The notes: generated from the letters alone by a model not told the origin. A stretch of 32,000 bases of DNA from Nitrosospira multiformis ATCC 25196 (GCF_000196355.1 NC_007614.1:2070001-2102000); one strand, 5' to 3'. Counted from the first letter of the stretch, positions 6,801-25,900 are shown. Numbers and translations are program-made.

Positions 6801-7874
<1,074 letters not shown>

Positions 7875-8020
7875 TTTCCCACAGGCTCCATTAACAGGAA
7901 CCCTCCATTGCCCCCTTTCATTCCTTTAGTTGTACTACACTTAACCAGATTTCCAGAGAAAGCCCTACTGCGCTTTCCCGGACCGACATTAAATTTAGAA
8001 TATCTTTTGACTGTGGAGGA

Positions 8021-8236
8021 ATGATGACAAAACTTGCCGAGGCGGAACTTGCGGGACTGGATGCCGTTATAGAAGCAAGAAGAATGACATCCGATACGTC
8101 CGACAAATATGAGCAGATCGTGATACCCATTGGTAATGCCGGCACAGCTGTGGCGGGTGATAACGCGGGCTTATCAGGGGGAGAGGGCCTGTCGCTGGGA
8201 GTACTCATGAAGCTTCGCGAGAACGCGCTGAGCTGA
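8021..8236 (+). CDS. small acidic Gly/Ala-rich hypothetical protein (71 aa), first gene of the cassette
   Basis: A strong SD precedes tandem ATGs (GGAGGAATGATG). The sequence is MMTKLAEAELAGLDAVIEARRMTSDTSDKYEQIVIPIGNAGTAVAGDNAGLSGGEGLSLGVLMKLRENALS. It has no Cys, no TM helix and no signal peptide. Its stop is 12 nt before the next ATG. The overlapping minus-strand ORF 7918..8250 is Ser/Pro-rich and looks like a shadow frame. Confidence 0.5.
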   Translation: MMTKLAEAELAGLDAVIEARRMTSDTSDKYEQIVIPIGNAGTAVAGDNAGLSGGEGLSLGVLMKLRENALS

Positions 8237-8248
8237 TATGAACTCGCC

Positions 8249-8764
8249 ATGTCATTAGTCTCTATCCTGCTTTATTCGGTAGTGACTCTTTGGCTGGTAA
8301 TCACATTATTGGCGCAACACCCACGCTTCCAGTCCGTCATCAACCGGTTTAACGGACTTCATATCATTCCGCGCTGGACATTCTTTGCACCTAATCCCGG
8401 CGTCAGGGATTATCACCTGGTTATAAGGGAGCGTTACTGCGACGGGCGATTGACAGACTGGAAAAGCGTGACTGTTTATCCGCCGCGCCCGAAATTGGCT
8501 TACTTGTGGAATCCACAGAAGCGGGCATCGAAGATTCTGACTGATGCCATCCAGGCAATAAAGCTGTTGTTGAAACGCGACGATGTGGGACCCTCGGGAC
8601 TTCCTTTCACTGTCCCCTATCTCCTTCTTTTGCATTATGCAGCCCATGCTGTGCCGGCCGAGCCGGACGCTGCCGAATTTCAATTCGCGATTATCGAGTC
8701 TACAGGGCACCTCGAGCGGGAACTGGAATGCTCATTCCTTTCCAGTTTTCATAGCCGATGGTAA
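8249..8764 (+). CDS. single-pass membrane protein, SdpA-family-like
   Basis: An N-terminal TM helix (LVSILLYSVVTLWLVITLLA) is followed by IIPRWTFFAPNPGVRDYHLV. This resembles the PQGWxFFxxxP.D motif I recall for SdpA-family 'antimicrobial peptide system' proteins. It overlaps the next gene as ATGGTAA. The family call is from memory and needs an HMM check. Confidence 0.55.
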   Translation: MSLVSILLYSVVTLWLVITLLAQHPRFQSVINRFNGLHIIPRWTFFAPNPGVRDYHLVIRERYCDGRLTDWKSVTVYPPRPKLAYLWNPQKRASKILTDAIQAIKLLLKRDDVGPSGLPFTVPYLLLLHYAAHAVPAEPDAAEFQFAIIESTGHLERELECSFLSSFHSRW

Positions 8765-9591
8765 CTGAGGGCATGGCAGACATCGCCTTATGCCTTGTCA
8801 TCACCAAGACTCTATTGGCCGCTTGGGCCTTGCTTTCCGCAGCGGAATGGTTTGCCAACCTTCACCTGTTCCGGTCCGATGGCTTGCTCACATGGAATAT
8901 CCTGCGCCTGCGCCCACGTCTTTTAATCCCCGTATCCGTTCGCCATCGTGTGCACGCGGAATCCGCCGTAATTGCTGTCCTGGCATGCCGTATTGCCGCG
9001 GCACTTCTGCTGCTGATCCCCTACCCCAATCCCGCTGATTTGCCGTGCAGCCTGCTCATCCTGCTTTCATGCTTCTACATGTCACGCCGCACGTGGTTCG
9101 GTGGCGATGGGTCGGATCAGATGGGAATGGTCATTGCCGCAGGTGTTGCCATCATTTCCGCCGGCCTTGCGCTGGATGACATGAACCTGGCGGCCTCCGG
9201 TGTTTTTGCAATCAGCGGTCAAGCGGTCCTCGCCTATTTTGTTGCGGGCGCCGCCAAGGTGGTTTCACCGGCCTGGCGAGGCGGAAATGCGTTGCCCGGT
9301 GTGATGAAAACCCGAACATACGGACACTTCCTTGCCGCGAGTTTTGCCGCAGAGCGGCCCGCCTTCTGCAAGTTCGTATGCTGGTTGACTATCGGGACGG
9401 AAATGCTATTTCCACTCGTTCTATTGGCGCCACCCGGCGTGGCGGTTGCAAGTCTTTGCTGCTTCGCCCTTTTTCATTTTTCCAATGCCTACTTCATGGG
9501 ACTGAACGCGTTCGTCTGGCCTTTTCTCGCGACTTATCCGGCTGTCATGCTAGCCAATTCGGCGGCCCGAGACTGGATGGGCTGGATATGA
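8758..9591 (+). CDS. polytopic membrane protein, SdpB/HTTM-domain-like
   Basis: 277 aa with at least 6 hydrophobic segments. It contains NLHLFRSDG near the N-terminus and WFGGDGSDQMGMV, which resembles the GGDQ-type motif of HTTM/SdpB proteins as I recall it. An alternative start exists at Met 8773. The stop overlaps the DCC gene start as ATGA. Confidence 0.6.
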   Translation: MVTEGMADIALCLVITKTLLAAWALLSAAEWFANLHLFRSDGLLTWNILRLRPRLLIPVSVRHRVHAESAVIAVLACRIAAALLLLIPYPNPADLPCSLLILLSCFYMSRRTWFGGDGSDQMGMVIAAGVAIISAGLALDDMNLAASGVFAISGQAVLAYFVAGAAKVVSPAWRGGNALPGVMKTRTYGHFLAASFAAERPAFCKFVCWLTIGTEMLFPLVLLAPPGVAVASLCCFALFHFSNAYFMGLNAFVWPFLATYPAVMLANSAARDWMGWI

Positions 9592-9986
9592 CAGCGACTG
9601 CGAGTGATTCAAATCGCCTCTCCATCATTTATGACAGGGAATGCCCTTTTTGTGCGGCGTTTGTGAAGCTTTACGCTTTACGGAAGAATATAGGCGGGAT
9701 AGAACTCATCGACGCCCGGACAAGACCTGATTTGGTCAGGGCGTTGCGGGCCCAAGGCATGGAAATCAATGAAGGCATGGCCGTGATATGGCAGAGGCAT
9801 TATTACCACGGGGCCAATGCAATGCACCTTCTTTCCATACTCGGTGCTGACAGGGGACTTCTTGGGAGGTTGAACAAATTCCTGTTCCGCAACAGAAATG
9901 CCGCTGAGGTGATTTATCCTGTGCTCGCGACCGGCCGCAGAGTGGCCCTATCGTTACTGGGCAGAAAAATGATTCCACACCAATGA
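9588..9986 (+). CDS. DCC-family (DUF393) thiol-disulfide oxidoreductase
   Basis: The internal Met of ORF 9378..9986 gives MTATASDSNRLSIIYDRECPFCAAFVKLYALRKN. The [IV]xYDxxCxxC N-terminal redox motif and the ~130-aa length are typical of the DCC family. The ORF-track N-terminal 70 aa overlap the previous gene out of frame. Confidence 0.8.
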   Translation: MTATASDSNRLSIIYDRECPFCAAFVKLYALRKNIGGIELIDARTRPDLVRALRAQGMEINEGMAVIWQRHYYHGANAMHLLSILGADRGLLGRLNKFLFRNRNAAEVIYPVLATGRRVALSLLGRKMIPHQ

Positions 9987-10039
9987 CGGTCAAGACCGAT
10001 TTTTCCGAAAAAATCAGAAAGGGGCGGACATGACGCAAA

Positions 10040-11326
10040 TCAGGACAATACAGCTATATCTCTCCTGCTCCCTTCATAAGTTTTCTTTCGCGCCCAGCGC
10101 TTCTTCTGCCAGATGATCACTCCCGTAACTGACAGCATCGCCACCAGCAGGCCCATGAGGGATACGAAAATGCGCCCGGGAAGCCCGACGATACGTCCGG
10201 AATGCAGCGGAAACTGCGCCTGCATGAAAATATCACCCGCACTGCCCTCACCCGGCACATTCGCTCCGACGGATGTTCCATCCTTGCCGTCAAAGAAAAG
10301 CGAGGGGTTCCCCAGCCCCGCATCGCCATGGTCGTTCCCCGGTTCGAAGAAGATGACACCATAAACACCTACCTCGGGATCATAAAATATGCCGCCGGGA
10401 GGCGTGCTCCATTCACGCTTTTCCGCTTCGGTTATCGCATACTGCAGGATGGTGTGGCGATCCACCATCGGCTCGATAGGCTGGTCGGGAGGATTGGGAG
10501 TACGTGTAAAGGGGCTGGGCGACAGCGTCGAAAACAGCGACACCAGCGGCCGCATGACCTGCTGGTTGAGATTCATCGACACGGCGGTCACCGCCAGAAC
10601 CAGCAGGAATCCCCATACCCACACCCCACCGGATCGATGCAGATCGAAGTTCAGCCTTGCTCCTCCCTGCCGCCAGCGGAATACAAAGGATTTGGTCCAT
10701 GCACTCGCCTTGGGAAATGAAATCCACAGAGCAATGAAGCAATCGAGTGCCCAGATAATCGCGAGAGTCCCCATGAACAGGATTCCCAGCTCGATTCCAA
10801 ACCCATCCGGAATATGCATGCTGTAATGCAGCTTATACAGAAACGGCAACAGGTTCTCACGGCTGAGCGAAATTTCACCCCACATGCGCTTGCCACGCAC
10901 TTCCCCGTCAACCGGATCGAGGGCTATCTGGTTGAAATCCAGATTGAAGGCCATGCCTGTTGCCGGGTCGAGACGGGACTTCACCGCCAGCCCAAGGTTA
11001 TGGCCCGGCTCGACGGAGAGTGGAAGCCAGGTCACCATTAACCGGGGGTCCGCCGCTTCCAGCCGGTCGGCCAGCAGCAGTGGAGGCTGCGGCATGCCGC
11101 CAGTATTCCTGGCCTGGAAGAGCCGGGGGTTCAGCCACTCATCCAGCTCATGATCCCAGGAGATGACCGCGCCGGTAAGGCCGGATACGAAAAGAAACGC
11201 GGCCAATAGAAGACCTGCCCAGCGGTGCGCCAGTACTAGAAAGTTGCGCCCGACCGAAAGTTTCTCCACGCGCCGGGTATCCTGTGCCCTGGCTACGCCC
11301 GGCGGCACCGTGATCACTCGTTTCAT
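10040..11326 (-). CDS. PepSY-domain TM protein (PiuB/FoxB-like, putative ferric-siderophore reductase)
   Basis: LHRWAGLLLAAFLFVSGLTGAVISWDHELDEWLNP is the typical PepSY_TM start. Further His-bearing TM helices follow (LHYSMH, DLHRSGGVW, PLHSGRI). The start is 4 nt after the exporter stop. Confidence 0.85.
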   Translation of the reverse strand: MKRVITVPPGVARAQDTRRVEKLSVGRNFLVLAHRWAGLLLAAFLFVSGLTGAVISWDHELDEWLNPRLFQARNTGGMPQPPLLLADRLEAADPRLMVTWLPLSVEPGHNLGLAVKSRLDPATGMAFNLDFNQIALDPVDGEVRGKRMWGEISLSRENLLPFLYKLHYSMHIPDGFGIELGILFMGTLAIIWALDCFIALWISFPKASAWTKSFVFRWRQGGARLNFDLHRSGGVWVWGFLLVLAVTAVSMNLNQQVMRPLVSLFSTLSPSPFTRTPNPPDQPIEPMVDRHTILQYAITEAEKREWSTPPGGIFYDPEVGVYGVIFFEPGNDHGDAGLGNPSLFFDGKDGTSVGANVPGEGSAGDIFMQAQFPLHSGRIVGLPGRIFVSLMGLLVAMLSVTGVIIWQKKRWARKKTYEGSRRDIAVLS

Positions 11327-11330
11327 TGCT

Positions 11331-12998
11331 TCATGTCACACCGTTAAGTACCAGCGGCGGGGCCGGGGTTGCGTGCAGGGCATCTTTCAGCGATGGGCAA
11401 GCGTTGAACGTCAGGCATCCGCTCTCCATGCGTATCAACCGGTCTGCAAGATGAAAGTAACGGTCATCGTGCGATATCACCAATACGGCCTTGCCCATGG
11501 CGCGCAATTCCGGAAGGAGCTCGCGGTAAAAGACCTCCTTGAATACCGGGTCCTGATCCGCCGCCCATTCGTCGAATATAAAAAACGGGCGGTTCTCCAG
11601 ATAGGCAACCACCAAAGCGAGACGTTTGCGCTGTCCTTGCGAAAGCGCAAGCGTAGTGAAAGCCCCATCCTGTACCTTAACCTTGTTTTGCAGGTGCAGT
11701 TTGGCTAAAAGCCGGTTGCCTTCATTATCCAGGTCGACCCTGTCCGTTTCAAGCAAGCGGTCGAAAAGATGAAAATCCGAAAAAACCGTCGAAAAAAGCT
11801 GCCTGTAGCAATCGCGGTTTGTTTCATCGACCGCTTTCCCATTGAAAATTATCTGGCCTTCCTCCGGCGGATAGAGTCCAACCAGCAATTTGGCCAGAGT
11901 GGTCTTGCCGCTGCCGTTGCCTCCCACCAGAAAAGTAATCTCTCCGGGACGGAAATCCAGATCTATGGGGCCGAGCGTAAACAATTCATCGCTCTGCTCA
12001 TGATAATACCGGTGCAGCACGCCCCGGAGTGCAAGGGACTGCAAGCCGGGGAGAGAAGAGTTATCGGTCTCGATCTCCTGGGTCGTCATCGCCCGCGTTA
12101 TTTCCTCGATCCGCTCCGCAGAAACCTTGGCCAGATTGGCACGGGGAATATTCAACAGAAGCGCTTCGAGCGGTCCCACCATGTAAACGAACACCAGCGC
12201 GTAGCCCGTCATGACCAGAGCCCGGTCAGGACCATCACTCACCAGCGCAAATAATACCATCCCGATAAACACATAGAGCAGGAATTGGGCCCATCCACCG
12301 GATGCGACGAAGACGGACATTCCAAAAGTCCTTTCGCGGCGCACAGTCTCGATCGAGCCTGACAGTACATCCTCATAGAATGCCTTCCGCTTCCGGTTAT
12401 TGAGGCGAAGCTCCTTGGCCCCGTCGGTCAGGGATCGAAAATAGGAAAACAGTTTATCCTGCTCTTCGGACGCAATATTCAAATGACGTATTGCGCGCAG
12501 GTGCGCAAGATGATATCCCACGCACCCCAGGCCAACCACAAGGATAGCGAGCAGGAATACTTGCCATGAAAGCCACGCCATATAAAGCAGACATCCTGCG
12601 ACGATGACGGCATTCATCAGGATGATGGGAAAGCTCACAAAGAATTCGGCAACGTGCGTGCAATGCTCGGCAAGGGCCGACTGTATGCGGGCAGCCCCCA
12701 CCGTTTCAAGATTACGGTAGTCGGCAGCAAGCACCTTTCTGGCGACAAAGCTGCGCAATTCCGCGTGCGCCCGTTGTCCCAGGCGCTCGAAAAGGATCGC
12801 TGCGCTTACATAACTCAGCATCACGGCCACGGCAGTGGCAATAAAAACGAGTGCCAGGGTTCCGCGTTCGCTCTCGGTCGCGGTGAGCGCGGAACTGATC
12901 TGCGCGATGAGCAACACGCTGCAAGTACCATGGAATACTGTGACCAATGAAGCGCCTGCCAATAATACCCGGGATTGGTTGATGAGATACTTGAGCAT
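11331..12998 (-). CDS. cyclic-peptide/siderophore export ABC transporter (PvdE/SyrD family; fused TMD-NBD)
   Basis: 555 aa. A six-helix TMD is followed by an NBD with Walker A GGNGSGKTT, signature LSQGQRKRLAL and Walker B FFIFDEWAADQD. This is the characteristic DEWAADQDP variant of the PvdE-type family as I recall it. Confidence 0.88.
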   Translation of the reverse strand: MLKYLINQSRVLLAGASLVTVFHGTCSVLLIAQISSALTATESERGTLALVFIATAVAVMLSYVSAAILFERLGQRAHAELRSFVARKVLAADYRNLETVGAARIQSALAEHCTHVAEFFVSFPIILMNAVIVAGCLLYMAWLSWQVFLLAILVVGLGCVGYHLAHLRAIRHLNIASEEQDKLFSYFRSLTDGAKELRLNNRKRKAFYEDVLSGSIETVRRERTFGMSVFVASGGWAQFLLYVFIGMVLFALVSDGPDRALVMTGYALVFVYMVGPLEALLLNIPRANLAKVSAERIEEITRAMTTQEIETDNSSLPGLQSLALRGVLHRYYHEQSDELFTLGPIDLDFRPGEITFLVGGNGSGKTTLAKLLVGLYPPEEGQIIFNGKAVDETNRDCYRQLFSTVFSDFHLFDRLLETDRVDLDNEGNRLLAKLHLQNKVKVQDGAFTTLALSQGQRKRLALVVAYLENRPFFIFDEWAADQDPVFKEVFYRELLPELRAMGKAVLVISHDDRYFHLADRLIRMESGCLTFNACPSLKDALHATPAPPLVLNGVT

Positions 12999-13511: not shown

Positions 13512-14606
13512 ATGGGACATTTACACGGGCAAGGCCGGCATCTCTCGGCTCGCGCCGCGTCGATTACTTGCTGTCCCGATCGGACTGCATATTCGGCTGC
13601 GCTCGACGGCAACACCTTGCTTTTACAACCGGTGAATGGTGTCGAAAATTCGCGGTGGCAACTGGGCCAGCAGGCTGACGGACTGACTCTGGAATGGATG
13701 GGGTCCGATGCTGAAAAACCCAAGCTCGTGGAAGTATTGGCGGCAATTGAAGCTGCGTTCGTCAGTTTTCCTGTCGCAGACAAACTGAACCTCCTGGCTC
13801 CTTTCGATCAGGCTGAAGAACTGCTTCGATCAGGTCTCCTCCTTCACAACGGGAGCGGTCAGACCACGGTGAATATCGGGCTTTTCTGGCAGCAGCCGAG
13901 AATATGGCTGGTGCCGCCTCAGGCCTATGCCTTCCCCGTAACTTATGTGCTCAGCGAAGGGCGGCGCCATCCCTTGCGGCCCCCGAAACCGGCCGGCATC
14001 GTATACCAGCGCCATATCGATTGGCTCGGCCGTACCCTGTCATTTCGCACGGTGGATCTTCACCGGGACCTGGAACGCTTCAACCGCTGGATGAACGATC
14101 CCGTAGTAGCAGCATCCTGGCGGGAAGAAGGCGATCTGGCAAAACATCAGGCTTATCTGCAAGCCATTTCTGCAGACCCTCATGTCATAGCCCTTATCGC
14201 GAGTCTCGATGACGAGGCTTTCGGTTATTTCGAAGTTTACTGGGCAAAAGAAGACCGTATTGCCCCTTTCTATGATGTGGATGACTTCGATCGGGGCTGG
14301 CACGTGCTGATCGGCGAAGCCCGCTTTCGCGGCAAGCCCTTCGTCACGGCTTGGCTGCCATCGATCTCCCATTACCTGTTTCTCGACGATTGCAGGACCC
14401 AACGCGTCGTCATAGAACCTCGTACGGACAATTACAAAATGATTCGCAATCTCGCCAGGTGCGGTTATGCGAATCTCAAGGAATTCGATTTCCCCCACAA
14501 ACGCGCCATGCTCGGCATGTTGTTGCGGGAACGCTTCTTTGCAGAACGACTGTGGGTTCCACGCGATGTCATCGCAACATCCTGTTCCACATCTTCTTTA
14601 TCCTGA
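13512..14606 (+). CDS. siderophore N-hydroxy-amine acyltransferase (IucB/PvdY/AlcB-type GNAT)
   Basis: The C-terminal half reads FNRWMNDP.V..W.E.G....H..YL......PH....I..LD....GYFE.YWA.ED.....Y.....DRG.H.LIGE..FRG......W.......LF.D..T.R.V.EP...N......L...G. This is typical of the siderophore acetyltransferase family. The ~180-aa N-terminal extension and the exact start are unverified. Confidence 0.8.
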   Translation: MGHLHGQGRHLSARAASITCCPDRTAYSAALDGNTLLLQPVNGVENSRWQLGQQADGLTLEWMGSDAEKPKLVEVLAAIEAAFVSFPVADKLNLLAPFDQAEELLRSGLLLHNGSGQTTVNIGLFWQQPRIWLVPPQAYAFPVTYVLSEGRRHPLRPPKPAGIVYQRHIDWLGRTLSFRTVDLHRDLERFNRWMNDPVVAASWREEGDLAKHQAYLQAISADPHVIALIASLDDEAFGYFEVYWAKEDRIAPFYDVDDFDRGWHVLIGEARFRGKPFVTAWLPSISHYLFLDDCRTQRVVIEPRTDNYKMIRNLARCGYANLKEFDFPHKRAMLGMLLRERFFAERLWVPRDVIATSCSTSSLS

Positions 14607-14616
14607 GGATATCGCT

Positions 14617-15924
14617 ATGCAAATACATGACCTGATCGGTATCGGCTTTGGTCCCTCCAACATTGCGCTTGCCATTACCCTGGAGGAAAAGAAACAGGAA
14701 GGATACGACGTAGACGCGTTTTTTATCGAGAAACAGCCGGGTTTTGCCTGGCATCCAAACATGATGCTGGACAATGCGCATATGCAGATTTCCTTCCTGA
14801 AGGATCTGGCCACCCTGCGGAACCCTTCCAGTTACTTTACATTCATCAACTATCTCCATCAAAAACAGCGGCTGCAGGACTTTATCAACCTTAAAACCTT
14901 TTTTCCGAGCCGCCACGAATTCAACGATTACCTCGCCTGGGCTGCCTCCCATTTCGACGATCGCTGTGCTTACGGCGAAGAAGTTCTGGAAGTGTTGGCG
15001 GAGAAGCGTAATGATGAAGTGATGCTGCTGCGCGTGCGTTCGCTGGATTCCACGGGCACGGCGCGGGAACGCCTGGCCCGCAATCTCATCGTGAGCGTCG
15101 GCGGTGTTCCCAGTGTCCCCGAATGCTTCCAACCGCTGAAAGGCGACAAACGCATATTTCATTCGAACAGTTATCTCCGCGAGATCGAGCGGCACAAGGA
15201 AGCAAAGAAAATAGCAGTCGTGGGTGCAGGTCAAAGCGCATCGGAAATTTTCATGGATCTGCACAACCGCCCGAATGCCCCGCAGGTTGATCTGATCATG
15301 CGTGGCCGCGCAATCAAGCCGTCGGACGACAGCCCTTTTGTAAACGAAATCTTCAATACCGATTTCACCGACTTCGTTTTCAGTCGTTCGGAGCATGACC
15401 GGGTTTCTCTCCTGGAGGAGTTCTGGCATACCAATTACGCTGCACCCGATCTGGTTTTGATCGAACAGATCTTCAATGTGTTCTATCAACAGAGAGTGAC
15501 CGGCAATACCCGCCACCGCTTCCTGCGGCGTCATGAAGTCACGAGCGTCAGTGCTTTGCCGGAAGGCGGCATTCAATTGCTTCTGCGCGATTTGAATGGG
15601 GGGCGGGAATACAGTGCGATCTACGATGCAGTAGTGCTTGCAACGGGCTACGGACGGGATTATCACAAATCCTTGCTGAAATCCCTTTCACCCTACCTGA
15701 GTAACTTCAGCGTAGACCGCAACTACCGATTGAAAAGTACGCCAAATTTTCGGCCTGCCATCTTCCTTCAGGGGGCCTGCGAATCAACTCACGGTTTGAG
15801 CGATACGCTGCTTTCAGTTACAGCGGTTCGCACGCACGAAATTGGACAGGCGCTCGTAGGCATGATCAATGACCCGGTTGCTAAGCAGGCAGAAAACCCG
15901 GTGCGCGCAGTGGCCGTCCGTTGA
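14617..15924 (+). CDS. L-lysine N6- / L-ornithine N5-monooxygenase (IucD/PvdA family)
   Basis: The start is set at the internal Met MQIHDLIGIGFGPSNIALAI, which carries the FAD motif GxGxxN; GAGGAT lies 7 nt upstream and the site is 11 nt after the previous stop. The NADPH motif VVGAGQSASEIF and the DAVVLATGY motif are present. The ORF-track N-terminal 50 aa overlap the previous gene. Confidence 0.9.
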   Translation: MQIHDLIGIGFGPSNIALAITLEEKKQEGYDVDAFFIEKQPGFAWHPNMMLDNAHMQISFLKDLATLRNPSSYFTFINYLHQKQRLQDFINLKTFFPSRHEFNDYLAWAASHFDDRCAYGEEVLEVLAEKRNDEVMLLRVRSLDSTGTARERLARNLIVSVGGVPSVPECFQPLKGDKRIFHSNSYLREIERHKEAKKIAVVGAGQSASEIFMDLHNRPNAPQVDLIMRGRAIKPSDDSPFVNEIFNTDFTDFVFSRSEHDRVSLLEEFWHTNYAAPDLVLIEQIFNVFYQQRVTGNTRHRFLRRHEVTSVSALPEGGIQLLLRDLNGGREYSAIYDAVVLATGYGRDYHKSLLKSLSPYLSNFSVDRNYRLKSTPNFRPAIFLQGACESTHGLSDTLLSVTAVRTHEIGQALVGMINDPVAKQAENPVRAVAVR

Positions 15925-16017: not shown

Positions 16018-18372
16018 ATGAAAGCCTATACAAAAACTATTAAAGGGCTCTGTCCACTTACACGACCCACCAAACTTGTAATCGCAATACAGTACGCACT
16101 CCTCAGCCTGGCCGTCGCTGGCCACGTGCATGCACAGGACGCCTCCCCGGAATCAGCCAGAAAATCCCAAATGAATGTTCTTCCGGCAGGAGGTAATGCC
16201 GAAACCTCTGCCACAGACTCTTCCGGATCCGGAGACAAAGCTTCAAAGGGGAACGCCCCATCGACTCAGGAGAATGCGCAGCAGGGGAAAAATCCAGAAT
16301 CAGTCAAACCTTCCGAAACGGTTCTGCCAACCCTGGTTATCCGGGAAAAAGGAGTCCAAGAGGGATACGGCACTAAAAGCAGTATAGTGGGAACCAAGAC
16401 TAGGACTCCAATTACAGAGATACCGCAATCCATGTCCGTTATCAGCCGAAATGAATTGGATATGCGTGCCGTAAACCTCAATTTCACTGAAGCACTACGA
16501 TATATACCGGGTGTGGTACCGGACCAGTTTGGTTTCAACGGAACGGGTTTCGAGTATGTAAGCATGCGAGGCTTCAACTCCCTGAGTACTGCCAACTTCC
16601 GGGATAATTTAAGCCAGCAGGGGAGAGGGCTTTATTTTGCCGACTTCATCACTGACCCCTATTCTCTCGAGCGGGTAGAGGTATTGCGCGGTCCCACCTC
16701 GGTCATTTTCGGGCGAGGCGATGCGGGAGGTATCATAAACCGTGTTACGAAGCTGCCCACCTCCACTCCCATCCGCGAGGTCGAGCTCCAGTACGGCAGT
16801 TTCGACCGCAAGCGGATCGCCGGGGATTTTGGACTGGCCAATGAAGATGGAACACTGATGTTCCGGCTGGTCACGACCGCGCTCGATACGGACACGCAGG
16901 TGCGCTTTCCGAATACGGGCGGAGATCGGGCCCAGATCAGGCGCTTTTACATCTCGCCGTCGCTGACTTGGCGCCCCACCGACCGGACATCCGTCACACT
17001 TTTCGGCGATATCCTGAACAACCGCAGCGAAGCGTCTGCCTTTTACGTAGCAACGCAAGGGGGCAGCCCCACTAATACGTTGCTGGGCGAACCCACCTTC
17101 ACGCGGTATTCGACCGACCAGGCTTCCTTCAGCTACAAACTCGAGCACCATTTCAACGACACCTTCACGGTACGGCAAAACTTCCGTTTCATGGGACTCG
17201 ATGGCAGGTTCCGAGACCTTAACCCCGCAGGATTTGACGCGGATGGACGGACCTTGTTTCGCAGTGCATTGAGTACGCGGGAGCGGGTGAATCAAACGGT
17301 GCTGGATACACATGTGGAAGCTCGTACCCGGACAGGCCCCCTCAATCATACCGTACTGGCCGGAATCGACTGGAATCGCGTCGAGTCCACCCTTAAATCT
17401 TTTACGGGCAGCGCTCCCTCCATCGATATTTTCAATCCCGTATATTTCCAACCGGTGCCCACCCCGGATTCCCCGTTCATTGATGGCAACCAAAAGATAG
17501 ACCAGGTTGGATTTTACGTACAGGATCAAATCAAGCTCAACCAATGGCTTTTGACTCTGAGCGGCCGCCACGACAGGGTGTCGAACGTTACCAATGTTAA
17601 TGTTTTCGATCCGCAGCATACCGCTAGCAAGGATTCAGCATATACCGGCAGGGCGGGGCTGACCTACCTTTTTTCCAACGGCATCGCGCCTTATTTCAGT
17701 TATTCGCAGTCGTTTCTGCCTCAATACGGAATCGATTTTGGTAATAACAGCCCCTTCAAACCTGCGCGCGCTTCCCAGTATGAAGTGGGCATCAAGTATC
17801 AACCCCCGGGCACCAGGAATTTGTTTACGGCAGCATTGTTCGAATTGACCAAAACCAACGTTTTAATTCCTGATCCCCGTACACCGCTTGGCGTGTCGCA
17901 AGCAGGCGAGATACGCTCCCGGGGAGCGGAATTGGAAGCAAGGACAGAGGTTTTTCGAGGATTGAATGCGATTGGCGCTTTCAGCTATGTCGACGTCAAG
18001 GTAACCGAAAGCGCCAGTGGTTTTACAGGTAACATGCCTGTGCGGGTACCCAACCTGACGACCTCAGGCTGGCTCGACTATAACCTCGGCACATTGAATG
18101 TCGACTGGTTGAAGGGGTTCTTCATCGGGGGCGGCGTGCGCTATGTGGGCAGAGTGTTCAATGATGAGGCGAATACCAGCACCACACCTTCCTTTACCCT
18201 GTTCGATGCGGTCCTGCGATATGATCACGGCCCCTGGCAATTTCTCATCAATGCCAACAACATATTCGATGAGAAATACTATACCGCCAATAATGTCGTC
18301 CCGGGTTCCGGCGGACAGTTCTTCCTGGGGACGCGACGTACTGTGATCGGGACGTTGAAACTCAGGTTTTAA
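16018..18372 (+). CDS. TonB-dependent siderophore receptor
   Basis: A signal peptide ends ...AVAGHVHA|QD. It is followed by a ~70-aa low-complexity linker, a TonB-box-like ETVLPTLVI, plug motifs (IPQSMSVISR, RVEVLRGPTSVIFGRGDAGGIINRVTK), a 22-strand-type beta barrel and a terminal aromatic residue (LKLRF). Confidence 0.9.
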   Translation: MKAYTKTIKGLCPLTRPTKLVIAIQYALLSLAVAGHVHAQDASPESARKSQMNVLPAGGNAETSATDSSGSGDKASKGNAPSTQENAQQGKNPESVKPSETVLPTLVIREKGVQEGYGTKSSIVGTKTRTPITEIPQSMSVISRNELDMRAVNLNFTEALRYIPGVVPDQFGFNGTGFEYVSMRGFNSLSTANFRDNLSQQGRGLYFADFITDPYSLERVEVLRGPTSVIFGRGDAGGIINRVTKLPTSTPIREVELQYGSFDRKRIAGDFGLANEDGTLMFRLVTTALDTDTQVRFPNTGGDRAQIRRFYISPSLTWRPTDRTSVTLFGDILNNRSEASAFYVATQGGSPTNTLLGEPTFTRYSTDQASFSYKLEHHFNDTFTVRQNFRFMGLDGRFRDLNPAGFDADGRTLFRSALSTRERVNQTVLDTHVEARTRTGPLNHTVLAGIDWNRVESTLKSFTGSAPSIDIFNPVYFQPVPTPDSPFIDGNQKIDQVGFYVQDQIKLNQWLLTLSGRHDRVSNVTNVNVFDPQHTASKDSAYTGRAGLTYLFSNGIAPYFSYSQSFLPQYGIDFGNNSPFKPARASQYEVGIKYQPPGTRNLFTAALFELTKTNVLIPDPRTPLGVSQAGEIRSRGAELEARTEVFRGLNAIGAFSYVDVKVTESASGFTGNMPVRVPNLTTSGWLDYNLGTLNVDWLKGFFIGGGVRYVGRVFNDEANTSTTPSFTLFDAVLRYDHGPWQFLINANNIFDEKYYTANNVVPGSGGQFFLGTRRTVIGTLKLRF

Positions 18373-18426: not shown

Positions 18427-19398
18427 ATGGCACTTGATCCCGATCTTGCAGCATTTCTCGAACTTGTGGAAGCGGGCATCAGCAATGGTGTCCCTCGCTT
18501 GCACGAGCTGCCGCCCGCGAAAGCGCGCGAACAATACGATATATCCACCCTGGCTCTGGATAGCCCAGGTATGGAGGTCGCGAGCGTCAAGGAAATCGGC
18601 ATCCCTTCCCGGGATGGAAATGAGATAACGGCAAGACTCTATGCGCCTCTGCTGGATGAGCCGTTGAACGGCCTGGCGGCGCCCGCGCTGCTGTATTTTC
18701 ATGGAGGCGGATATTGCGTGGGCAGCCTGGATTCCCACGACTCGCTATGCCGGACACTGGCTGCGCTGACCCCCTGCTGCGTGCTGAACGCCAGCTACCG
18801 GTTGGCGCCTGAGCATCCATTCCCCACGGCGGTACATGATGCGCAGGATGCCTACCGATGGCTTCTTTCCAACGGACTCGCTCATGGTATCGATCCTCAA
18901 CGGATAGCCGTGGGAGGCGATAGCGCAGGGGGCACGCTGGCCATCGGATTGACTATCGCCGCCAGGGAAATGGATTGGCCACAACCGGTATTCCAGGCGT
19001 TGCTCTACCCGTGCACAAGCGCGTGGCAGAATACCGATTCGCACCGCCGCTTCGCAAAGGGATACCTGCTCGAAGCTGCGACACTGCAATGGATGTTCAG
19101 CAATTACCTCACCAGCGAAAGGGACCGGACAGACTGGCGTTTTGCTCCCCTCGAGGCAAAGGATTTGAGCAGCCTCGCTCCGGCATTCATCGCCGTGGCG
19201 GAATACGATCCGCTCGTGGATGAAGGAATTGAATACGCCAACAGACTCAAAGATGCCGGCGTTCCCACTCAGCTCAAAATCTACGAGGGCATGACGCACG
19301 ACTTTGCGCGCCTGACGAATATCCTCAACGACGCAAGCAAGGTGCGTGAAGAAGTGGCGCAGCAATTACAGAGGGCTTTTGCTGCGCCTCGAACCTAG
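18427..19398 (+). CDS. alpha/beta hydrolase, HSL-type esterase/deacetylase
   Basis: The oxyanion motif is LLYFHGGGYCVGS and the nucleophile elbow is GGDSAGGTLA. Acid and His candidates are YDPLVDEG and GMTHDF. Confidence 0.85.
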   Translation: MALDPDLAAFLELVEAGISNGVPRLHELPPAKAREQYDISTLALDSPGMEVASVKEIGIPSRDGNEITARLYAPLLDEPLNGLAAPALLYFHGGGYCVGSLDSHDSLCRTLAALTPCCVLNASYRLAPEHPFPTAVHDAQDAYRWLLSNGLAHGIDPQRIAVGGDSAGGTLAIGLTIAAREMDWPQPVFQALLYPCTSAWQNTDSHRRFAKGYLLEAATLQWMFSNYLTSERDRTDWRFAPLEAKDLSSLAPAFIAVAEYDPLVDEGIEYANRLKDAGVPTQLKIYEGMTHDFARLTNILNDASKVREEVAQQLQRAFAAPRT

Positions 19399-19413: not shown

Positions 19414-19803
19414 TCACGCTCCCATCGTGTCATCCATGTTTGCCAATGGCCATGCCGCCTCTCGTAACGCCTCCAGGGCATCACGCATGGGCACCGGCTC
19501 GTTTTGCACCAGGCGGCCTACCGCGTGCAATGGAACAAGCAAGTCCCTGCCTTCGTCCCCATAGCTGATCCACAGCGCTTCGAAATTCAGCGCGGGCACG
19601 CGAAACACGCGAAGTTCAGCCTCCTCCTCCGCTTCTCCCACCGCCTCCAGGACTTCGTACGTTCGTTGCAGTTGCCGCCCAGCAGCAGTTGGATTGGGTC
19701 TGCATCTGCATGTTGGATGCAAGCTGCTTCGATAAGAAAAGCCTGCCCCAAATGCTGAGTTCGTGCGAGAGGGAGCTGTAAGGAAGACTGGTAACGCGAA
19801 CAT
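19414..19803 (-). CDS. hypothetical protein; only the C-terminal ~85 aa look convincingly coding, and the 5' end and frame are uncertain
   Basis: The C-terminal part reads TYEVLEAVGEAEEEAELRVFRVPALNFEALWISYGDEGRDLLVPLHAVGRLVQNEPVPMRDALEALREAAWPLANMDD and is protein-like. The best SD plus ATG (AAGGAAAGAACAATG at 19816) is in a different frame. See the related finding. Confidence 0.35.
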   Translation of the reverse strand: MFALPVFLTAPSRTNSAFGAGFSYRSSLHPTCRCRPNPTAAGRQLQRTYEVLEAVGEAEEEAELRVFRVPALNFEALWISYGDEGRDLLVPLHAVGRLVQNEPVPMRDALEALREAAWPLANMDDTMGA

Positions 19804-19920: not shown

Positions 19921-22900
19921 TTATAGAACCTTCGAGGGAATTGCTGTCCTGGCACTCTCAAATCGAAGCGTACTTTCCATCCCGATAAACAACGCTTCTG
20001 CCCGTATGATCGAAAAGTGATCGGTATCGATTTCGTTTTCGGACAATTCAGGCTGGCCTGTTTGCCTTGAAAGAGCCAGCCGATCGGACAAGGGGCGGGT
20101 CGCAATCCACCAGCAGGTGGGTTGGATGTTCAAGCAGCCTAATTCCGAAGCCTGGGCAGCAAGCGCTTTCAAGTGCCGCGCGATGCCAAAGATACGAGCC
20201 AGTTCGCTTGCTCCCAGATCCGCATACCCGCCACGCTTCTTTTTCGTAGACGAAGGTGCACCTTCCGGCGAAACAGCATCTTCCGAAGCCTGCATGGCGG
20301 AAATCAATTCATCCAGTAAACCGGCCAAAGTTTCTTCCGATGGCTGCTTCAAGGATTGCAGACAACTCTTTTGATTTCCATCAGGAAAAACTCCATCCGC
20401 GCCATCGATTTTCGCTCCGGGCAGCACCACGGAAACAAAATCGGAAAAATCCTGTCGCCAGTCATCGGGCTCGGGTTCGTCTATGGCGGGAATGAAGGAA
20501 TCGATGAGACCCAGAAACGCCACCTCCTGCCCCTCCGCCTCCAGTAACACAGCCATCATGGCTGCAAGAGTGCCGCCGAGGGACCACCCTGACAGATGGT
20601 AGGGCCCCTCCGGCTGCGCCCGGCGAATGATCTGGACATAATCTGCCGCCATCTGGGCGAGAGAAGTATCGCGGTGTCCAGGATCAGAGAGCATGCGGCA
20701 AGGTATTCCATAGACCGTGCGCGTACCCTGTAGATGCCGTGCAAGCGGCTGGTAGTCGAACACAGTGCCCAAACCGGCATGGATGCAGAATAACGGTTCG
20801 ACTTTCGCTTTTTCGTCGCGCTGGTTTAACAGCAGCAGTGGCTGTGTTTTGCCGGGGGCTTCAACGTCCAGGCCGAGCAAACCGGCAATGGTCGGGCGCT
20901 GCATCAGATCCCGCAACTTGAAATCGAATTTCAAGCCGGGCAGGTTGCGCATTCGGGCCATGACTTTCAGGCTGGAGAGCGAATCTCCGCCGAGGGCGAA
21001 GAAGTTGTCCGTCTCGCCTACCCGTTCCACGCCCAGCACCTCCTGCCAGATCTGCGCCAGAAGCCTCGCTTCCGAAGTAGAGGGTGCTCGATAAGTGTCG
21101 GCAGCAACCGCATCCGGCTCCGGTAATGCACTGCGGTCAAGCTTGCCACTGGGCAGTCGGGGCAGCTTGTCCAGGATGACGATATGCGCGGGCACCATGT
21201 ATTCGGGCAGCCGCCTGACAAGTTGCTGCTTCAGCGTGCTTCCCAGCCCCGCACTCCCCTTCCGGACTGGTGCAACCATCCCCGTCGTCTCCTTCGGCGC
21301 GACATAAGCGGCGAGTTGCGGTCCTCCCGCCCCTTCCCGAACAACGACTGCAACATCGGTCAGTCCGGTAAGCTCACGTATGCATGCCTCGATTTCGCCC
21401 AGCTCGATCCGGAACCCCCGAATCTTCACTTGATGGTCAGCACGGCCGATATATTCGATATTGCCATCATCCAGCCAACGCACCAGATCACCCGTGCGGT
21501 AGAGCCGCCCGCCATTCCCGTCGAATGGGTCGGCTACAAAGCGCTCCGCTGTCAGTCCCGCTCGTCCCAGGTACCCGCGAGCAAGGCCATAGCCGCCGAT
21601 GTACAATTCTCCAACCCTGCCTATGGGTACCGGCTGCATATCGAGGTCGAGAACATACGCCGTCCGTTCTCCCACGGGTCTGCCGATGGGTGCGTAGGCG
21701 CAATCGAAACTGTTGCTTGCCTCCGTCTTCCAGATCAATGGGGTAACTACCGTCTCGGTGGGTCCGTAACCATTGATCAGAATGCGAGGCCGCAAAGTCT
21801 TTCGCACCAGGTCGTAGGAAGCCTTGGGCATGGCTTCGCCTCCGAAGACATAAAGCTCTACCGGGGGCGGATCGCTGCGGGGCGCAGCCCATTCGGCAAC
21901 CTGGCCTAGGTAAGCGGGTGGAAATGCTGCATTGGTAATGCCATAGCTGTGCAAAGCGTCGTATGTCTGCTCCGCGGTCCACAGTTCCTGGTCGCGCACT
22001 GCCAGGCCGGCACCGACTGTCAGTGCGGTCAGCCAGCGCTCATGTGCGCCATCGAATGAGAATGACATGAAGAGCAGCTCGCATGAGTGCGGCGTCATAC
22101 CGTAAATTCCCGCCGTCGCTTGGCAGTGCATGCTCAGGGGACCGTGCGCGACTGCCACTCCCTTGGGAAGCCCGGTCGAGCCCGATGTGTAGATAATGTA
22201 AGCCAGATTATGCTCATGGAGGGGAATGTCGGGGTTAGAGCCTGATTCCGCCGTCAGATCCAGCGAATCCAGCAACCACACCTGCACTCCAAAGCCGCTG
22301 CCGAGCTTGGCGAGCAACTTCTCTTCCGTCAAAAGGAGTGACATGCCACTGTCGTTCACCATGAAGGACAGGCGCTCTACCGGATATTCGGGATCGAGTG
22401 GTACATAGGCCCCGCCAGCCTTGAGCACGGCCAGCAGCGTGACAATGACCTCGAGCGAGCGTTCCATCGCCACTCCTACTCTCACTTCCGGTCCCACACC
22501 CATACGGGCGAGATGGTGCGCCAGCCGGTTTGCCCGCTCATTCAACTCCGCGTAGGATAATTCCTGCTCACCCATGAGCAGCGCAATCGCTTCAGGGTGG
22601 TGTTCCGCGTTCTGCTCTATCAGGTTGTGCACAAACTGACGCGAAAGCCGCGAGGGCAAGGTTTCCAAATGCGCATTGGATCCGAGAGAAAGGAGGTGCC
22701 CAATCTCTCTTTTTTCCATCCACCCCAGCTCTCCCACACGCCACTCCGGATGAGCCATCATTTCCCTCATCAGGAATTCCATTTGGCTGCGAAGACCGAG
22801 CACGAATGCTTCCGTAAAGTCTCCACACCCGTAGCAGTACTCGATTTCCAACCTGTCGCCCACCACGACCTGTAAGTCCATCGCGTATCCGGTCAACCCT

Positions 22901-25900
22901 TTGCCCTCTATTTCGCCGAAACGAAGACCATAAAGTTCGTTGCCGCGCAGCGCCTCGTCTATCGGGTAATTCTCGAATACGACAATGCTGTCGAATAAAG
23001 GCTGTCCGGGTGAACCGGCCCACCGCTGAATTTCGGCGAGCGATGCGTGCTCATGCTCACGCAGCCTGGCATTCGTTTTCTGCAGCAGGTCGAGATATTC
23101 TGCGACTGTCAGCTCACTTCGGTGCTCGACCGGAACCGGAATGGTATTGATGAACATTCCCATGATTTCGTCCGATTTGAGGAGACTATGGGGACGTCCT
23201 GCTACCGTCGCACCGAACACAACGGTGTCCTTGCCGGTGTGGCGCTGCAAAAGCAAGGCCCACGCGGCCTGCACGAAGGTGTTGAGCGTTATCTGCTGCC
23301 GTTGCGCGAAAGCCTTCAATCGACGCGTTTCGTTCTGACCCAGGAGGGTATAAATCTGGGCAAATCCTGCACAGCTTTCCTGCCCCTCCGGTCCCTCTGT
23401 CTTGCCAACTGTTTTCCGCAGCAAAGTGGGGCCATCGACCGCCTGAAGCTCACCCTGCCAGAAGTGTCGAGTCGCTTCGGCGTCCTGTTGCGCGAGCCAC
23501 CGTATGTAATGACCGTAGTCCGGCCCTACGTCGCGAAGCACCTTTCCGTCGTAGCAGCGCAGCCATTCGCTGATAAGCAGGGAATCAGCCCAGCCATCGA
23601 GCAGTATGTGATGGCGGGTCCATATCAGCTGATAACGGTTTTCAGCCAGGCGTATGAGAGCAAATCGCGCCAAGGGTGGCGCAAGAAAATCGAATTCCCG
23701 TTTCAACTCTTCTTCCGCATAAGGGGTAACACGGGAAGCCGTCTTATCCAGACCACGCCAGTCGAGATGAATCACCGGTACCTCGACCTTTCTGAATACA
23801 ATTTGCAGCGGGCGCCCGAGACCCGCTTGCCACAGGAAACCGGTGCGCAATATCGGATGACGAGCCACCATTTCCCGCCAAGCCCGCGTGAAGCGCTCCG
23901 GGTCCAGACCTTGCACTTCAACGCTGAGCTGGTTTACATAAAGCCCCATTCCGTCCCCTGCCGTTTCCAGGGTATGGAACAGCATCCCTTCCTGGGTGGG
24001 TGACAAAGGATAAACGTCTTCAATTTCATCCTCATCCAACGCAAGACCAGCAATCGTGCCGGCATTCAAATAGTCATGCAGATGACCTCGCTGCGGCTTG
24101 AGCAGAGCTGCCACCGTTTCCTGTATCGTCTCAGCCACTTCTGCCAGTGACGCGATGGTCTGGCGCTCGAACAATTGGCGTGGCGTGATCTTCCAGCCGA
24201 CACGGCGTGCCCTGGTGACAATCTGGAGACTGAGTATGGAATCGCCTCCCAGCTCGAAGAAGTTGTCATGCCGCCCCACCTGCGCCACACCCAGCACCTG
24301 CCCCCAGATACCCGCCAGCACCTCTTCCGCCTCTCCCTGCGGCGCCTCATAATGCTCCGTATGCGTAAACTCCGGCTCAGGCAAGGCCTTGCGGTCTACC
24401 TTGCCGCTCGGATTGAGCGGCAGACTCTCCAACACCACAATCATTGAGGGCAGCATGTAGTCGGGTAAGGTTCTGGCAAGCGCTTCGCGCAGTCGTGCTG
24501 CGTCCAAATCGGTCGTTGCATGGGCAGAAACATAGGCTATCAGCCGCGCTCCCCCTGTTGGATTGGATGCATTGGATCCTTCCCTCGCAACCACCACCGC
24601 TTCCCTGACTTCCGGCTGCGCCAGCAATTGCGTTTCGATTTCACCCAGTTCAATGCGGAATCCCCGTATCTTGACCTGATGATCCAGCCGCCCCAGGTAT
24701 TCGATCTGCCCGTCCGAGCGCCATCTTGCCAGATCCCCCGTGCGGTAGAGCCGCCCCCCTGTCTCATCGAAGGGATCGGCTATGAAACGGTCCGCCGTCA
24801 ATCCTCCACGGTTGAGATAGCCGCGGGCCAAGCCAATGCCACCCAGATACAGCTCTCCTGCCACTCCTTGCGGTACTTGGTTAAGATGAACATCGAGAAT
24901 GTATGCTTGGAGACCAGAGATCGGTTTTCCGATAGGCACGCTATTGTCCCTATCGTCAACACATTCCCATTGCGTGACATCGATTGCCGCTTCGGTCGGC
25001 CCGTAAAGGTTGAAGAGCCCCACGCCAGGGAGTTTTCTGAAAACCTGTTTCTGCACTTCCGCCTGCAGTGCTTCCCCACTGCAAATGATGCGTCGTAGAG
25101 TAGCAACGCATGCCTCTATTCCCTCATGCGCAAGAAATGCCTGTAGCATGGATGGAACAAAATGCAGGGTAGTCACGTTCTGGCGCAGGATTAGAGAGAG
25201 CAGACGGGCTGGATCACGGTGATCACCAGGCGCTGCGATGGCAAGACGTGCTCCGTACATCAATGGCCAGAAAAATTCCCAGACCGAAACGTCAAAGCTG
25301 AAAGGCGTCTTTTGAAGAACGGTATCGTCGTTACCCAGTTCGTATGCTTCCTGCATCCAGGCCAGGCGGTTATACAGAGCAAGGTGACGGTTGCCAGCTC
25401 CCTTTGGTTTACCTGTGGAGCCTGAGGTATAGATGACATAGGCAAGGTTGTGTCCATGCAGGACGGCTTGCGGATTGCTGTCGGATTCATCCTCGAGGTC
25501 GAGCCTGTCCAGCTCCAGCACCGGATATTGGCCGGAGTGGGGAATGCGCGATCGAACCCCGCTTTGCGTCAGCAGCAGCCCGATGCCACTGTCTGCCACC
25601 ATGTAGGCCAGCCGCTCCTGCGGATATTCCGGGTCGAGCGGCACATACGCCCCGCCCGCCTTCAGGGTGGCAAGCAACCCCACCACCATGTCGATCGAGC
25701 GCTCCACCGCAATGCCTACCTTGACCTCCGGCCCAACCCCGAGCCTGATCAAGCGGTGCGCCAGAAGGTTCGCCCTTCGGTTCAGCTCGCCATAGCTCAA
25801 TTCGGCATCGCCAAAGATCAGGGCAACCGCCCCCGGCTGGACTTCAACCTGCCGTTCGATCAGCCTGTGCACGGGCTCGGTATTGGCGTAGCGCTGCTCG

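Follow-up and report, generated by a model that had tools for sequence, protein, structure and literature searches.

This computational work, which covered gene order, conservation, homologies, conserved residues and co-occurrence statistics, concerned four adjoining genes of Nitrosospira multiformis ATCC 25196 (g1, g2, g3 and g4, plus strand, directly 3' of obg; Table 1), located in a 32-kb stretch of its genome (32,000 nt, NC_007614.1:2070001-2102000, hereafter the window). It indicated that the cassette is, by homology, linaridin-like and is not a linaridin cluster, because LinG and LinL homologues are present while LinE and the LinA precursor motifs are missing. With slightly more confidence than doubt, we regard it as a minimal relative of the linaridin maturation system for peptides that are made by ribosomes and modified after translation (RiPPs), devoid of LinE and associated with a DCC-family oxidoreductase, in which g2 and g3 would modify g1. 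The original prediction, made from the window's sequence, had described a small open reading frame (ORF) followed by SdpA-like, SdpB/HTTM-like and DCC genes, with no recognisable toxin cargo and an undefined function. The closest known system according to our homology searches, linaridin LinA/LinL/LinG, had thus been missed, as had the linaridin literature, according to which product formation depends on cypH, cypL, legG and legE, and the absence of a recognisable cargo was a misleading description because g1 is most likely the cargo.

The three larger proteins carry this interpretation, and the stretches quoted in the original prediction are indeed found in them (IIPRWTFFAPNP in g2, WFGGDGSDQM in g3, YDRECPFC in g4). 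The g2 protein, in which an N-terminal transmembrane (TM) helix (about residues 3-22) precedes an alpha/beta domain bearing PxWxFFAPNP as an invariant motif, shares 36% identity over 170 aa (BLASTP, E 1e-33) with Actinopolyspora alba SFE63470.1, which the RODEO profile hidden Markov model (HMM) labels LinL at 1e-67. Judged from this comparison, made with the A. alba LinL and not with CypL, g2 is a LinL homologue. Its assignment as SdpA-like had to be abandoned: g2 and 34 relatives gave no match to PF17418 or to the TIGR SdpA-family model, and hhalign against Bacillus subtilis SdpA scored 12.2 vs. 12.3 +/- 2.9 after shuffling. DUF5819 (PF19136), alike in architecture (N-terminal TM helix plus domain), was the only family matched consistently by the g2 family, at scores below threshold (18.6 bits for g2 and 26.0 for the best relative vs. 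a cut-off of 27.1), and Foldseek retrieved no PDB fold match for the AlphaFold 2 (AF2) model of g2, whose predicted local distance difference test score (pLDDT) was 88.

The g3 protein is 34% identical over 256 aa (BLASTP, E 2e-44) to the RODEO-labelled LinG of A. alba. The g3-family profile matched the N-terminal 135 aa of CypH with a probability of 97.4% (E 1.5e-11, score 74.1 vs. shuffled 12.6 +/- 2.6), g3 itself being 26% identical to this fragment (BLASTP, E 2.4e-4). The fragment was taken from a 966-nt ENA contig (locus L083), which encodes a cypemycin-type precursor and, after it, the N-terminal 135 aa of a CypH homologue; this precursor differs from CypA, whose sequence was confirmed by exact look-up, in 3 of 64 residues when the GTG start is counted. 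The same profile reached 34.8 against B. subtilis SdpB (shuffled 14.0 +/- 2.7) and 28.5 against the vitamin-K-dependent carboxylase GGCX, and on these measures g3 is far closer to linaridin LinG/CypH than to SdpB or GGCX. No Pfam or NCBIfam model was matched by g3 alone; 13 of 35 relatives match Pfam HTTM (PF05090) at 24.8-27.8 bits, one of them reaching the cut-off of 27.7, and 8 of 35 give weak LMF1 matches. As had been proposed, g4 is clearly a DCC1-like thiol-disulfide oxidoreductase, on the basis of its match to Pfam PF04134 (E 4.4e-13, 50.9 bits vs. a cut-off of 27.8) and of the motif D16-R-E-C19-P-F-C22.

The best substrate candidate is g1, in agreement with the original prediction, which had also correctly described it as devoid of Cys and of an N-terminal hydrophobic signal. 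It is conserved in 15 loci, with an N-terminal helix motif (ELxGLDxVIxAR), a C-terminal GGEGLSLxxLxxLR and, between these conserved ends, a variable middle (..IVIPIGNAG..). It is under purifying selection (dN/dS of about 0.11, with dS above 1.2 and synonymous sites near saturation), and just 11 representatives were found among 1.8 billion proteins. The small ORF is indeed kept in cassettes elsewhere: in Achromobacter animicus (L080), Paraburkholderia (L017), Rhizomicrobium (L018) and a Rhabdochlamydia metagenome-assembled genome (MAG; L075), g2-g3 are directly preceded by an ORF with g1-type ends, and an HMM of the C-terminal motif scored real ORFs at 11-37 bits vs. 9.8 for the best reversed decoy. 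Small ORFs that read MNRIExAA..PLE..PVLxTP, then a hydrophobic stretch and then G(K/M)SxxELLxxR were found in 47 of 58 actinobacterial loci, mostly just upstream of the g3 homologue and in up to 5 copies per locus, with 0 decoy hits. Profile-profile comparison of the g1-type with these actinobacterial LinA-type ORFs gave 22.7 vs. 7.2 +/- 1.5 (maximum 11.0) for shuffled columns, and the actinobacterial profile matched CypA weakly (15.3 vs. shuffled 8.9 +/- 1.9). Two g1-like ORFs have an unusual form. In Paraburkholderia kirstenboschensis (L017:4569-5492), a DCC domain and a g1-like peptide (MRLSAEELARLEAMF...RSLDELILIRRALL) share one frame with no stop between them, which may represent a fusion of DCC with a precursor or else two separate genes, with a start inside the frame; in the Rhizomicrobium MAG (L018:5027-5455), the g1-like ORF has 142 aa and its middle is a His/Asp-rich repeat (HAEADHAQADH...) reminiscent of metal-binding peptides.

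Published linaridin clusters consist of LinA, LinG, LinT, LinE and LinL, LinH (CypH) being a LinG-LinE fusion, and the actinobacterial loci of our scan match this architecture. LinG has been called an HTTM-domain protein (PMC9927463), and published deletion data show that no linaridin forms without any one of cypL, cypH and legG/legE (bioRxiv 10.1101/2020.07.09.196543). Many of the actinobacterial small ORFs appear verbatim as LinA precursors in RODEO supplements (A. alba, Prauserella rugosa), which hold further LinA entries from species of these loci (A. mzabensis, Amycolatopsis antarctica, Kutzneria buriramensis, Micromonospora endolithica); homologous ORFs were accepted as LinA precursors in two genome-mining studies, and the family is typed C1/C2 in the Ma-Zhang classification as reproduced in the RODEO supplement (bioRxiv 10.1101/2020.07.09.196543). 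The RODEO gene table of A. alba runs LinA (29586-29850), LinG (E 9.8e-104; a weak SdpB match is flagged as well), LinT, LinE, LinL, a LuxR regulator and a DUF393/DCC protein, and its LinL SFE63470.1 (33706-34297) is exactly the g2-like ORF of L029. With regard to g1 itself, the RiPPMiner sheet of Supplementary Dataset 4 (bioRxiv 10.1101/2020.07.09.196543) lists a 71-aa precursor of N. multiformis ATCC25196 identical to it. Because this identical sequence was already in a linaridin list, g1 as a linaridin-type precursor is not a new idea, and it was earlier set aside for want of LinE; the description of g1 as unannotated is also not quite accurate, NCBI records moreover carrying it as a hypothetical protein. 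The idea reportedly goes back to a 2010 cypemycin genome-mining paper. Our literature search found no paper on the cassette, its DCC gene or its GGCX-type residues. The same RiPPMiner sheet contains a Frankia sp. EUN1f entry (MSMRSEPGSLRLSQLARIDALITEAQ...TSIGELVEMRAQVVQG) whose N- and C-terminal motifs resemble those of g1 and whose RODEO score is N/A; the entries deemed invalid may include further members of the g1 family.

The neighbourhood scan, with one genome per species, comprised 79 loci encoding g3 relatives, a g2 homologue being present in 76-77 of them. The packing noted in the original prediction holds exactly, with a g1-g2 spacing of 12 nt (8237-8248), a g2/g3 overlap of ATGGTAA and a g3/g4 overlap of ATGA. 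The order g1-g2-g3-g4 is kept as one unit in 15 complete loci and on one contig truncated in g2, belonging to Nitrosospira, Nitrosovibrio, one Burkholderiales MAG and one gammaproteobacterial MAG, and this arrangement is far beyond chance. Actinobacterial operons are ordered as small ORF(s), g3-like gene, (ABC exporter), alpha/beta hydrolase, g2-like gene and LuxR, the g3-like and hydrolase parts being fused in some. The LinE hydrolase, counted with HMMs built from the loci, was found in 57 of 58 actinobacterial loci vs. 0 of 22 proteobacterial and chlamydial loci. A DCC gene, with the DxxCxxC motif present in every hit counted, adjoins the module in 20 of the 22 and in 20 of the 58. Its position varies across phyla: it is upstream in L017, L018 and L048, and for Nitrosospira and a Chlamydiia MAG it is downstream. 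Because LinE is absent (0/22) and DCC nearly constant (20/22) there, a LinE-less, DCC-linked branch of the LinG/LinL machinery exists outside Actinobacteria, of which the Nitrosospira cassette is a member. In the obligate intracellular Chlamydiia, the small-ORF/g2/g3 module occurs in the Rhabdochlamydia MAG (L075), and another MAG (L077) has g3 and DCC followed by a beta-lactamase-fold protein. Eight Pseudonocardiaceae loci (L037, L039, L042, L050-L052, L055, L066) have two complete LinG/LinE/LinL sets within 12 kb, each set with its own precursor type (MSNVEAFAN... or MNxIEKAAQ...).

The nearest counterparts of the cassette are linaridin clusters, especially the uncharacterised type C2 clusters (Pseudonocardiaceae, Actinopolyspora), which share the LinG homologue, the LinL homologue and the small ORF directly upstream, whose LinA peptides resemble g1 in having a helix at the N-terminus and the motif hydrophobic-S/T-x-x-(D/E)-L-L-x-x-R at the C-terminus, and about one third of which, among the actinobacterial clusters, include DCC/DUF393. 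By contrast, DCC is nearly obligatory in the cassette branch, and linaridin clusters are variable biosynthetic gene clusters whereas the cassette occupies a fixed core-genome position in a Gram-negative ammonia oxidiser. Several observations weigh against our interpretation. Unlike linaridin clusters, the cassette is without LinE, which is considered essential in linaridins, and also without LinT, LinM, LinD and a protease; it contains no LinE-type ORF, the only hydrolase of the window being an Abhydrolase_3 inside the siderophore island described below. The homology of g1 to actinobacterial LinA is moderately supported (hhalign probability 17.6%), the g1-family profile scored at noise level against CypA, and g1 has neither the PxxxTP cut-site motif of linaridin precursors, its corresponding stretch reading IVIPIG, nor the FANxxL leader motif that some groups of them carry. 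The middle of g1 is short and, in contrast to that of most relatives, non-hydrophobic. The RiPPMiner entry of g1 has a RODEO score of N/A, with no individual reason stated; the RODEO authors believe that RODEO-invalid RiPPMiner sequences were misidentified, 9 of 13 RiPPMiner precursors being without key linaridin features such as a LinE homologue (bioRxiv 10.1101/2020.07.09.196543). No type C linaridin with a g1-style C-terminal motif has been characterised, and the chemistry of LinG/LinL is not established in the linaridin sources covered. A vitamin-K-type cofactor, as considered below, is moreover questionable because betaproteobacteria generally use ubiquinone and not menaquinone.

A further objection is that g1 could be a small subunit, chaperone or regulator of a housekeeping g2-g3-g4 membrane redox complex, involved for instance in quinone or lipid handling, and not a substrate. 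We consider this unlikely. It accords with the location of the cassette, which in all the Nitrosospira and Nitrosovibrio loci examined (those with enough upstream sequence) belongs to the conserved rpmA-obg neighbourhood, with the strong conservation of g1 along its whole length within the genus, and with the HTTM relative LMF1, which is a maturation factor and not a peptide-modifying enzyme; the cassette also contains no exporter, protease, methyltransferase, decarboxylase or immunity gene. However, several paralogous small ORFs accompany one enzyme set in Actinobacteria, their middles are hypervariable between conserved ends, ABC exporters are found inside these operons, and homologous ORFs have, as mentioned, been accepted as LinA precursors. 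If g1 is a modified precursor, the cassette's fixed place 3' of rpmA-obg throughout Nitrosospira and the lack of exporter, protease and immunity gene suggest that the product is a physiological small protein, not a strain-specific antibiotic.

Structural modelling placed g3 in the HTTM superfamily. The AF2 model built from the family alignment (pLDDT 92.2, predicted template-modelling score 0.90) retrieved human GGCX cryo-EM structures as its top 14 PDB matches in Foldseek (probability 1.00, TM-score 0.60-0.66), all subsequent matches having probabilities below 0.3, i.e., noise. Searching PDB sequences with the profile of g3, or with a relative, did not find GGCX, which was found by the fold search and by targeted hhalign. 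The modelled g3 thus has the HTTM/GGCX fold, so that the HTTM half of the original SdpB/HTTM-like label stands, while its SdpB half amounts to a remote similarity. The g3-family profile aligned with human GGCX (reference sequence identical to PDB 13ib_A) pairs K167 with K218, W173 with W223, E215 with D263, F252 with F299, H240 with H287 and Y160 with Y211; each of these g3 residues is kept by all 35 family members, apart from F252, which 34 of 35 have. Because the overall hhalign probability is low (9.5%), this residue mapping rests on anchored identities and on the independent fold match. In GGCX, K218 is the general base, W223 stacks on K218, F299 stacks CO2, and N159/H160 hold the substrate Glu (PMC12647623).

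These residues bring to mind a bacterial vitamin-K-type carboxylase, in which g3 with g2 would carboxylate Glu or Asp of g1 by means of a quinol and O2 while g4 recycled the quinone epoxide as VKOR does. GGCX is indeed the only PDB fold match of g3, the equivalents of K218, W223, D263 and the CO2-stacking F299 are invariant or nearly so, a DCC protein with CxxC is linked to the module across phyla, in a manner reminiscent of the VKOR-GGCX pairing, MloH of malonomycin biosynthesis carboxylates Asp, and the GGEG motif of g1 contains a near-invariant Glu. However, g3 shares about 15% identity with GGCX and is devoid of a lumenal domain, N159/H160, which bind Glu, align to the non-conserved G123/M124, Y395 has no counterpart, and the predicted topology of g3 is opposite, with a cytoplasmic active face. 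The small-ORF families as a whole have no conserved acidic residue in common. Dehydrobutyrine is the defining feature of the linaridins, which are the nearest relatives to have been characterised, and the linaridin sources covered report no carboxylated residue (bioRxiv 10.1101/2020.07.09.196543). A resemblance of g2 to the GGCX lumenal domain, eyeballed as WTNGLYGYSW vs. RWTFFAPNP, was rejected (hhalign 12.1 vs. shuffled 13.0 +/- 2.3, no Foldseek match). Menaquinone supply in Nitrosospira is also doubtful. We therefore hold such a carboxylase to be decidedly unlikely, and gamma-carboxylation of Glu, raised by the original prediction, is not favoured because the substrate-Glu residues of GGCX fall on non-conserved g3 positions.

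A carboxylase of this type has independently been proposed, in a 2026 preprint (10.64898/2026.08.19.745780), for a Firmicute (Melghirimyces) pair made of a DUF5819 protein and an HTTM-DCC fusion, whose predicted AlphaFold 3 complex resembles GGCX and MloH and whose conserved residues are Lys 189, Trp 195 (six later) and Phe 273 (84 later). Like the cassette, this pair brings together a DUF5819-like protein anchored by a TM helix, a protein of the HTTM type and a DCC domain, and its 189/195/273 spacing nearly equals that of g3 K167/W173/F252. It differs in that the DCC of the cassette is a separate gene and that g2 and g3 do not reach the Pfam cut-offs for DUF5819 and HTTM, and the accessible part of the preprint mentions neither a small-ORF partner nor a linaridin connection.

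From a mechanistic point of view, we infer the following sequence of events for the linaridin-like maturation that we favour. The g1 product would be a ribosomal precursor, its N-terminal helix and C-terminal GLSLxxLxxLR helix serving as recognition elements and its variable middle receiving the modification. The LinL-like g2 (single TM helix plus soluble domain) and the LinG-like g3 (GGCX fold) may form a membrane-embedded enzyme that binds g1 and modifies it post-translationally. According to the positive-inside rule, its active face is predicted to be cytoplasmic: the g3 loops with D117, K167 and W173 hold on average 5.6, 1.6 and 3.4 Lys plus Arg residues, opposite loops about 0, and g2 has 0.03 before its TM helix and 2.1 after it. 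This would put the putative catalytic g3 loops, as well as the soluble part of g2, on the same side as the leaderless g1 and g4. By analogy with CypH/CypL, g1 could undergo dehydration of Thr/Ser, L-to-D epimerisation or both; in either reaction the C-alpha proton is removed first, and the GGCX-type Lys/Trp/acid/Phe set could generate a strong base. The CxxC protein g4 may act as a redox helper by regenerating a cofactor, as VKOR does for GGCX, by providing reducing equivalents or in a thiol step. A bolder proposal, which we put forward as rather unlikely, is that LinG/LinL enzymes, including those of classical linaridins, are GGCX-like base generators that use quinol and O2 to remove C-alpha protons, that DCC proteins are their dedicated VKOR-like recyclers, and that the Nitrosospira cassette is a natural minimal version making a conserved, cytoplasmically modified physiological protein and not an antibiotic.

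The Sdp system, which guided the original prediction, offers a further alternative: g2 and g3 would act like SdpA and SdpB, and g1 would be a toxin precursor that is cut and released chemically unmodified. The comparison locus was the B. subtilis sdpABC locus (L082), located by exact SdpC look-up. In sdpABC and yitPOM, as in the cassette, a small-protein gene precedes and overlaps, in a similar style, an HTTM-superfamily gene, and a peptide precursor belongs to the operon; 15 of 35 g3-family members match TIGR04033 SdpB (best E 1.5e-9); and SdpC homologues have variable hydrophobic cores between conserved parts (PMC6818787), as do the Achromobacter, Chlamydiia and actinobacterial small ORFs. 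However, the SdpB matches do not exceed 37.9 bits vs. a cut-off of 178.4 and cover the C-terminal half only, g2 is not detectably related to SdpA, and the precursor of the cassette is first and not last, without a Sec signal or a hydrophobic core. An SdpC-like nature of the small ORFs, suggested by a VTPSC resemblance, was rejected: this resemblance is not significant, the small-ORF profiles scored as noise against the SdpC C-terminus, and the SdpC model gave no match. No SdpI/SdpR domain was found in neighbouring genes of the window, as the original prediction had also remarked for SdpC-like and immunity proteins. Toxin processing of the Sdp type is thus improbable, and the least likely of the explanations weighed here. 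In the alignment, SdpB (L082:2987-3958) has Arg at the position of GGCX Lys218 and g3 Lys167 and keeps the Trp, acid and His; because Arg replaces the catalytic Lys, SdpB may not perform GGCX-like chemistry.

Linaridins are held to be confined almost entirely to Actinobacteria, and the enzymes' action in the step that defines them is still poorly understood. The branch described here, from Proteobacteria and Chlamydiia, is LinE-less and DCC-linked and keeps the catalytic residues of the vitamin K carboxylase, and a four-gene system expressible in Escherichia coli offers a probe of LinG/LinL alone, of GGCX-like chemistry and of the purpose of DCC proteins, a large uncharacterised family. This work also flags a conserved, putatively modified small protein in a genus that matters for nitrification in soils. 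What is gained is limited in that the precursor had already been catalogued and then dismissed, that the homologies are to a known system and that the product cannot be inferred from the sequence.

With regard to expression signals, the pattern GGAGG-4 nt-ATG is conserved in the obg-g1 spacer of Nitrosospira orthologues, because of which the true start of g1 is probably at 8024, giving 70 aa. Translation of g3 might begin at Met6 (8773), as in homologues of 271-272 aa, which would leave an 8-nt g2-g3 gap in place of the overlap. Since no promoter-like site, terminator-like site or Rfam match was found in 7700-10200, the four genes are compatible with a single transcription unit, possibly with read-through from obg. 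In other Nitrosospira (L005, L009, L011, L012, L013), the obg-g1 spacer is longer, up to about 290 nt, and conserves a TTTTGCTATAAnTGAATT element resembling an extended -10; this element is missing from L003 and from the 146-nt spacer of the window (7875-8020), in which no sigma-70-like promoter was found.

Table 1. Positions, in window coordinates, of the cassette genes, of selected sites within them and of the downstream island.
Feature	Position	Strand	Description
g1	8021-8236 (alternative start 8024)	+	71 aa (70 aa from 8024); putative LinA-like precursor
g2	8249-8764	+	171 aa; LinL-like, N-terminal TM helix and alpha/beta domain
g3	8758-9591 (alternative start 8773)	+	277 aa; LinG-like polytopic protein, predicted HTTM/GGCX fold
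g4	9588-9986	+	132 aa; DCC-family thiol-disulfide oxidoreductase
Shine-Dalgarno GGAGG of g1	8015-8019	+	Pattern GGAGG-4 nt-ATG kept in Nitrosospira orthologues
Codon of g3 Lys167	9256-9258	+	Pairs with GGCX general base Lys218
g4 CxxC (Cys19-Pro-Phe-Cys22) of DxxCxxC	9642-9653	+	Read directly off the sequence
PepSY_TM	10040-11326	-	Siderophore-type island
ABC exporter	11331-12998	-	Siderophore-type island
IucB-like GNAT	13512-14606		Siderophore-type island
Lys/Orn N-monooxygenase	14467-15924		Siderophore-type island
TonB-dependent receptor	16018-18372		Siderophore-type island
Abhydrolase_3	18427-19398		Siderophore-type island; sole hydrolase of the window
129-aa ORF	19414-19803	-	Between the hydrolase and the gene of non-ribosomal peptide synthetase (NRPS) size; no Pfam match
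NRPS-size ORF	19921-31848	-	3975 aa; siderophore-type island

Upstream, the cassette is flanked by accA, an ABC-F protein gene, ispB, rplU, rpmA and obg (6810-7874), and downstream by the siderophore-type island (10040-31848), its location directly after obg and beside an iron-uptake island being as first described. Because the PepSY and ABC genes adjoin the cassette solely in N. multiformis loci, this island is not part of it. In A. animicus (L080:5835-6107), an unrelated 90-aa ORF without a Pfam match takes the place of DCC directly after the g3 homologue; further downstream there is a PDDEXK_GAPS4 gene, suggestive of a mobile element or a defence island.

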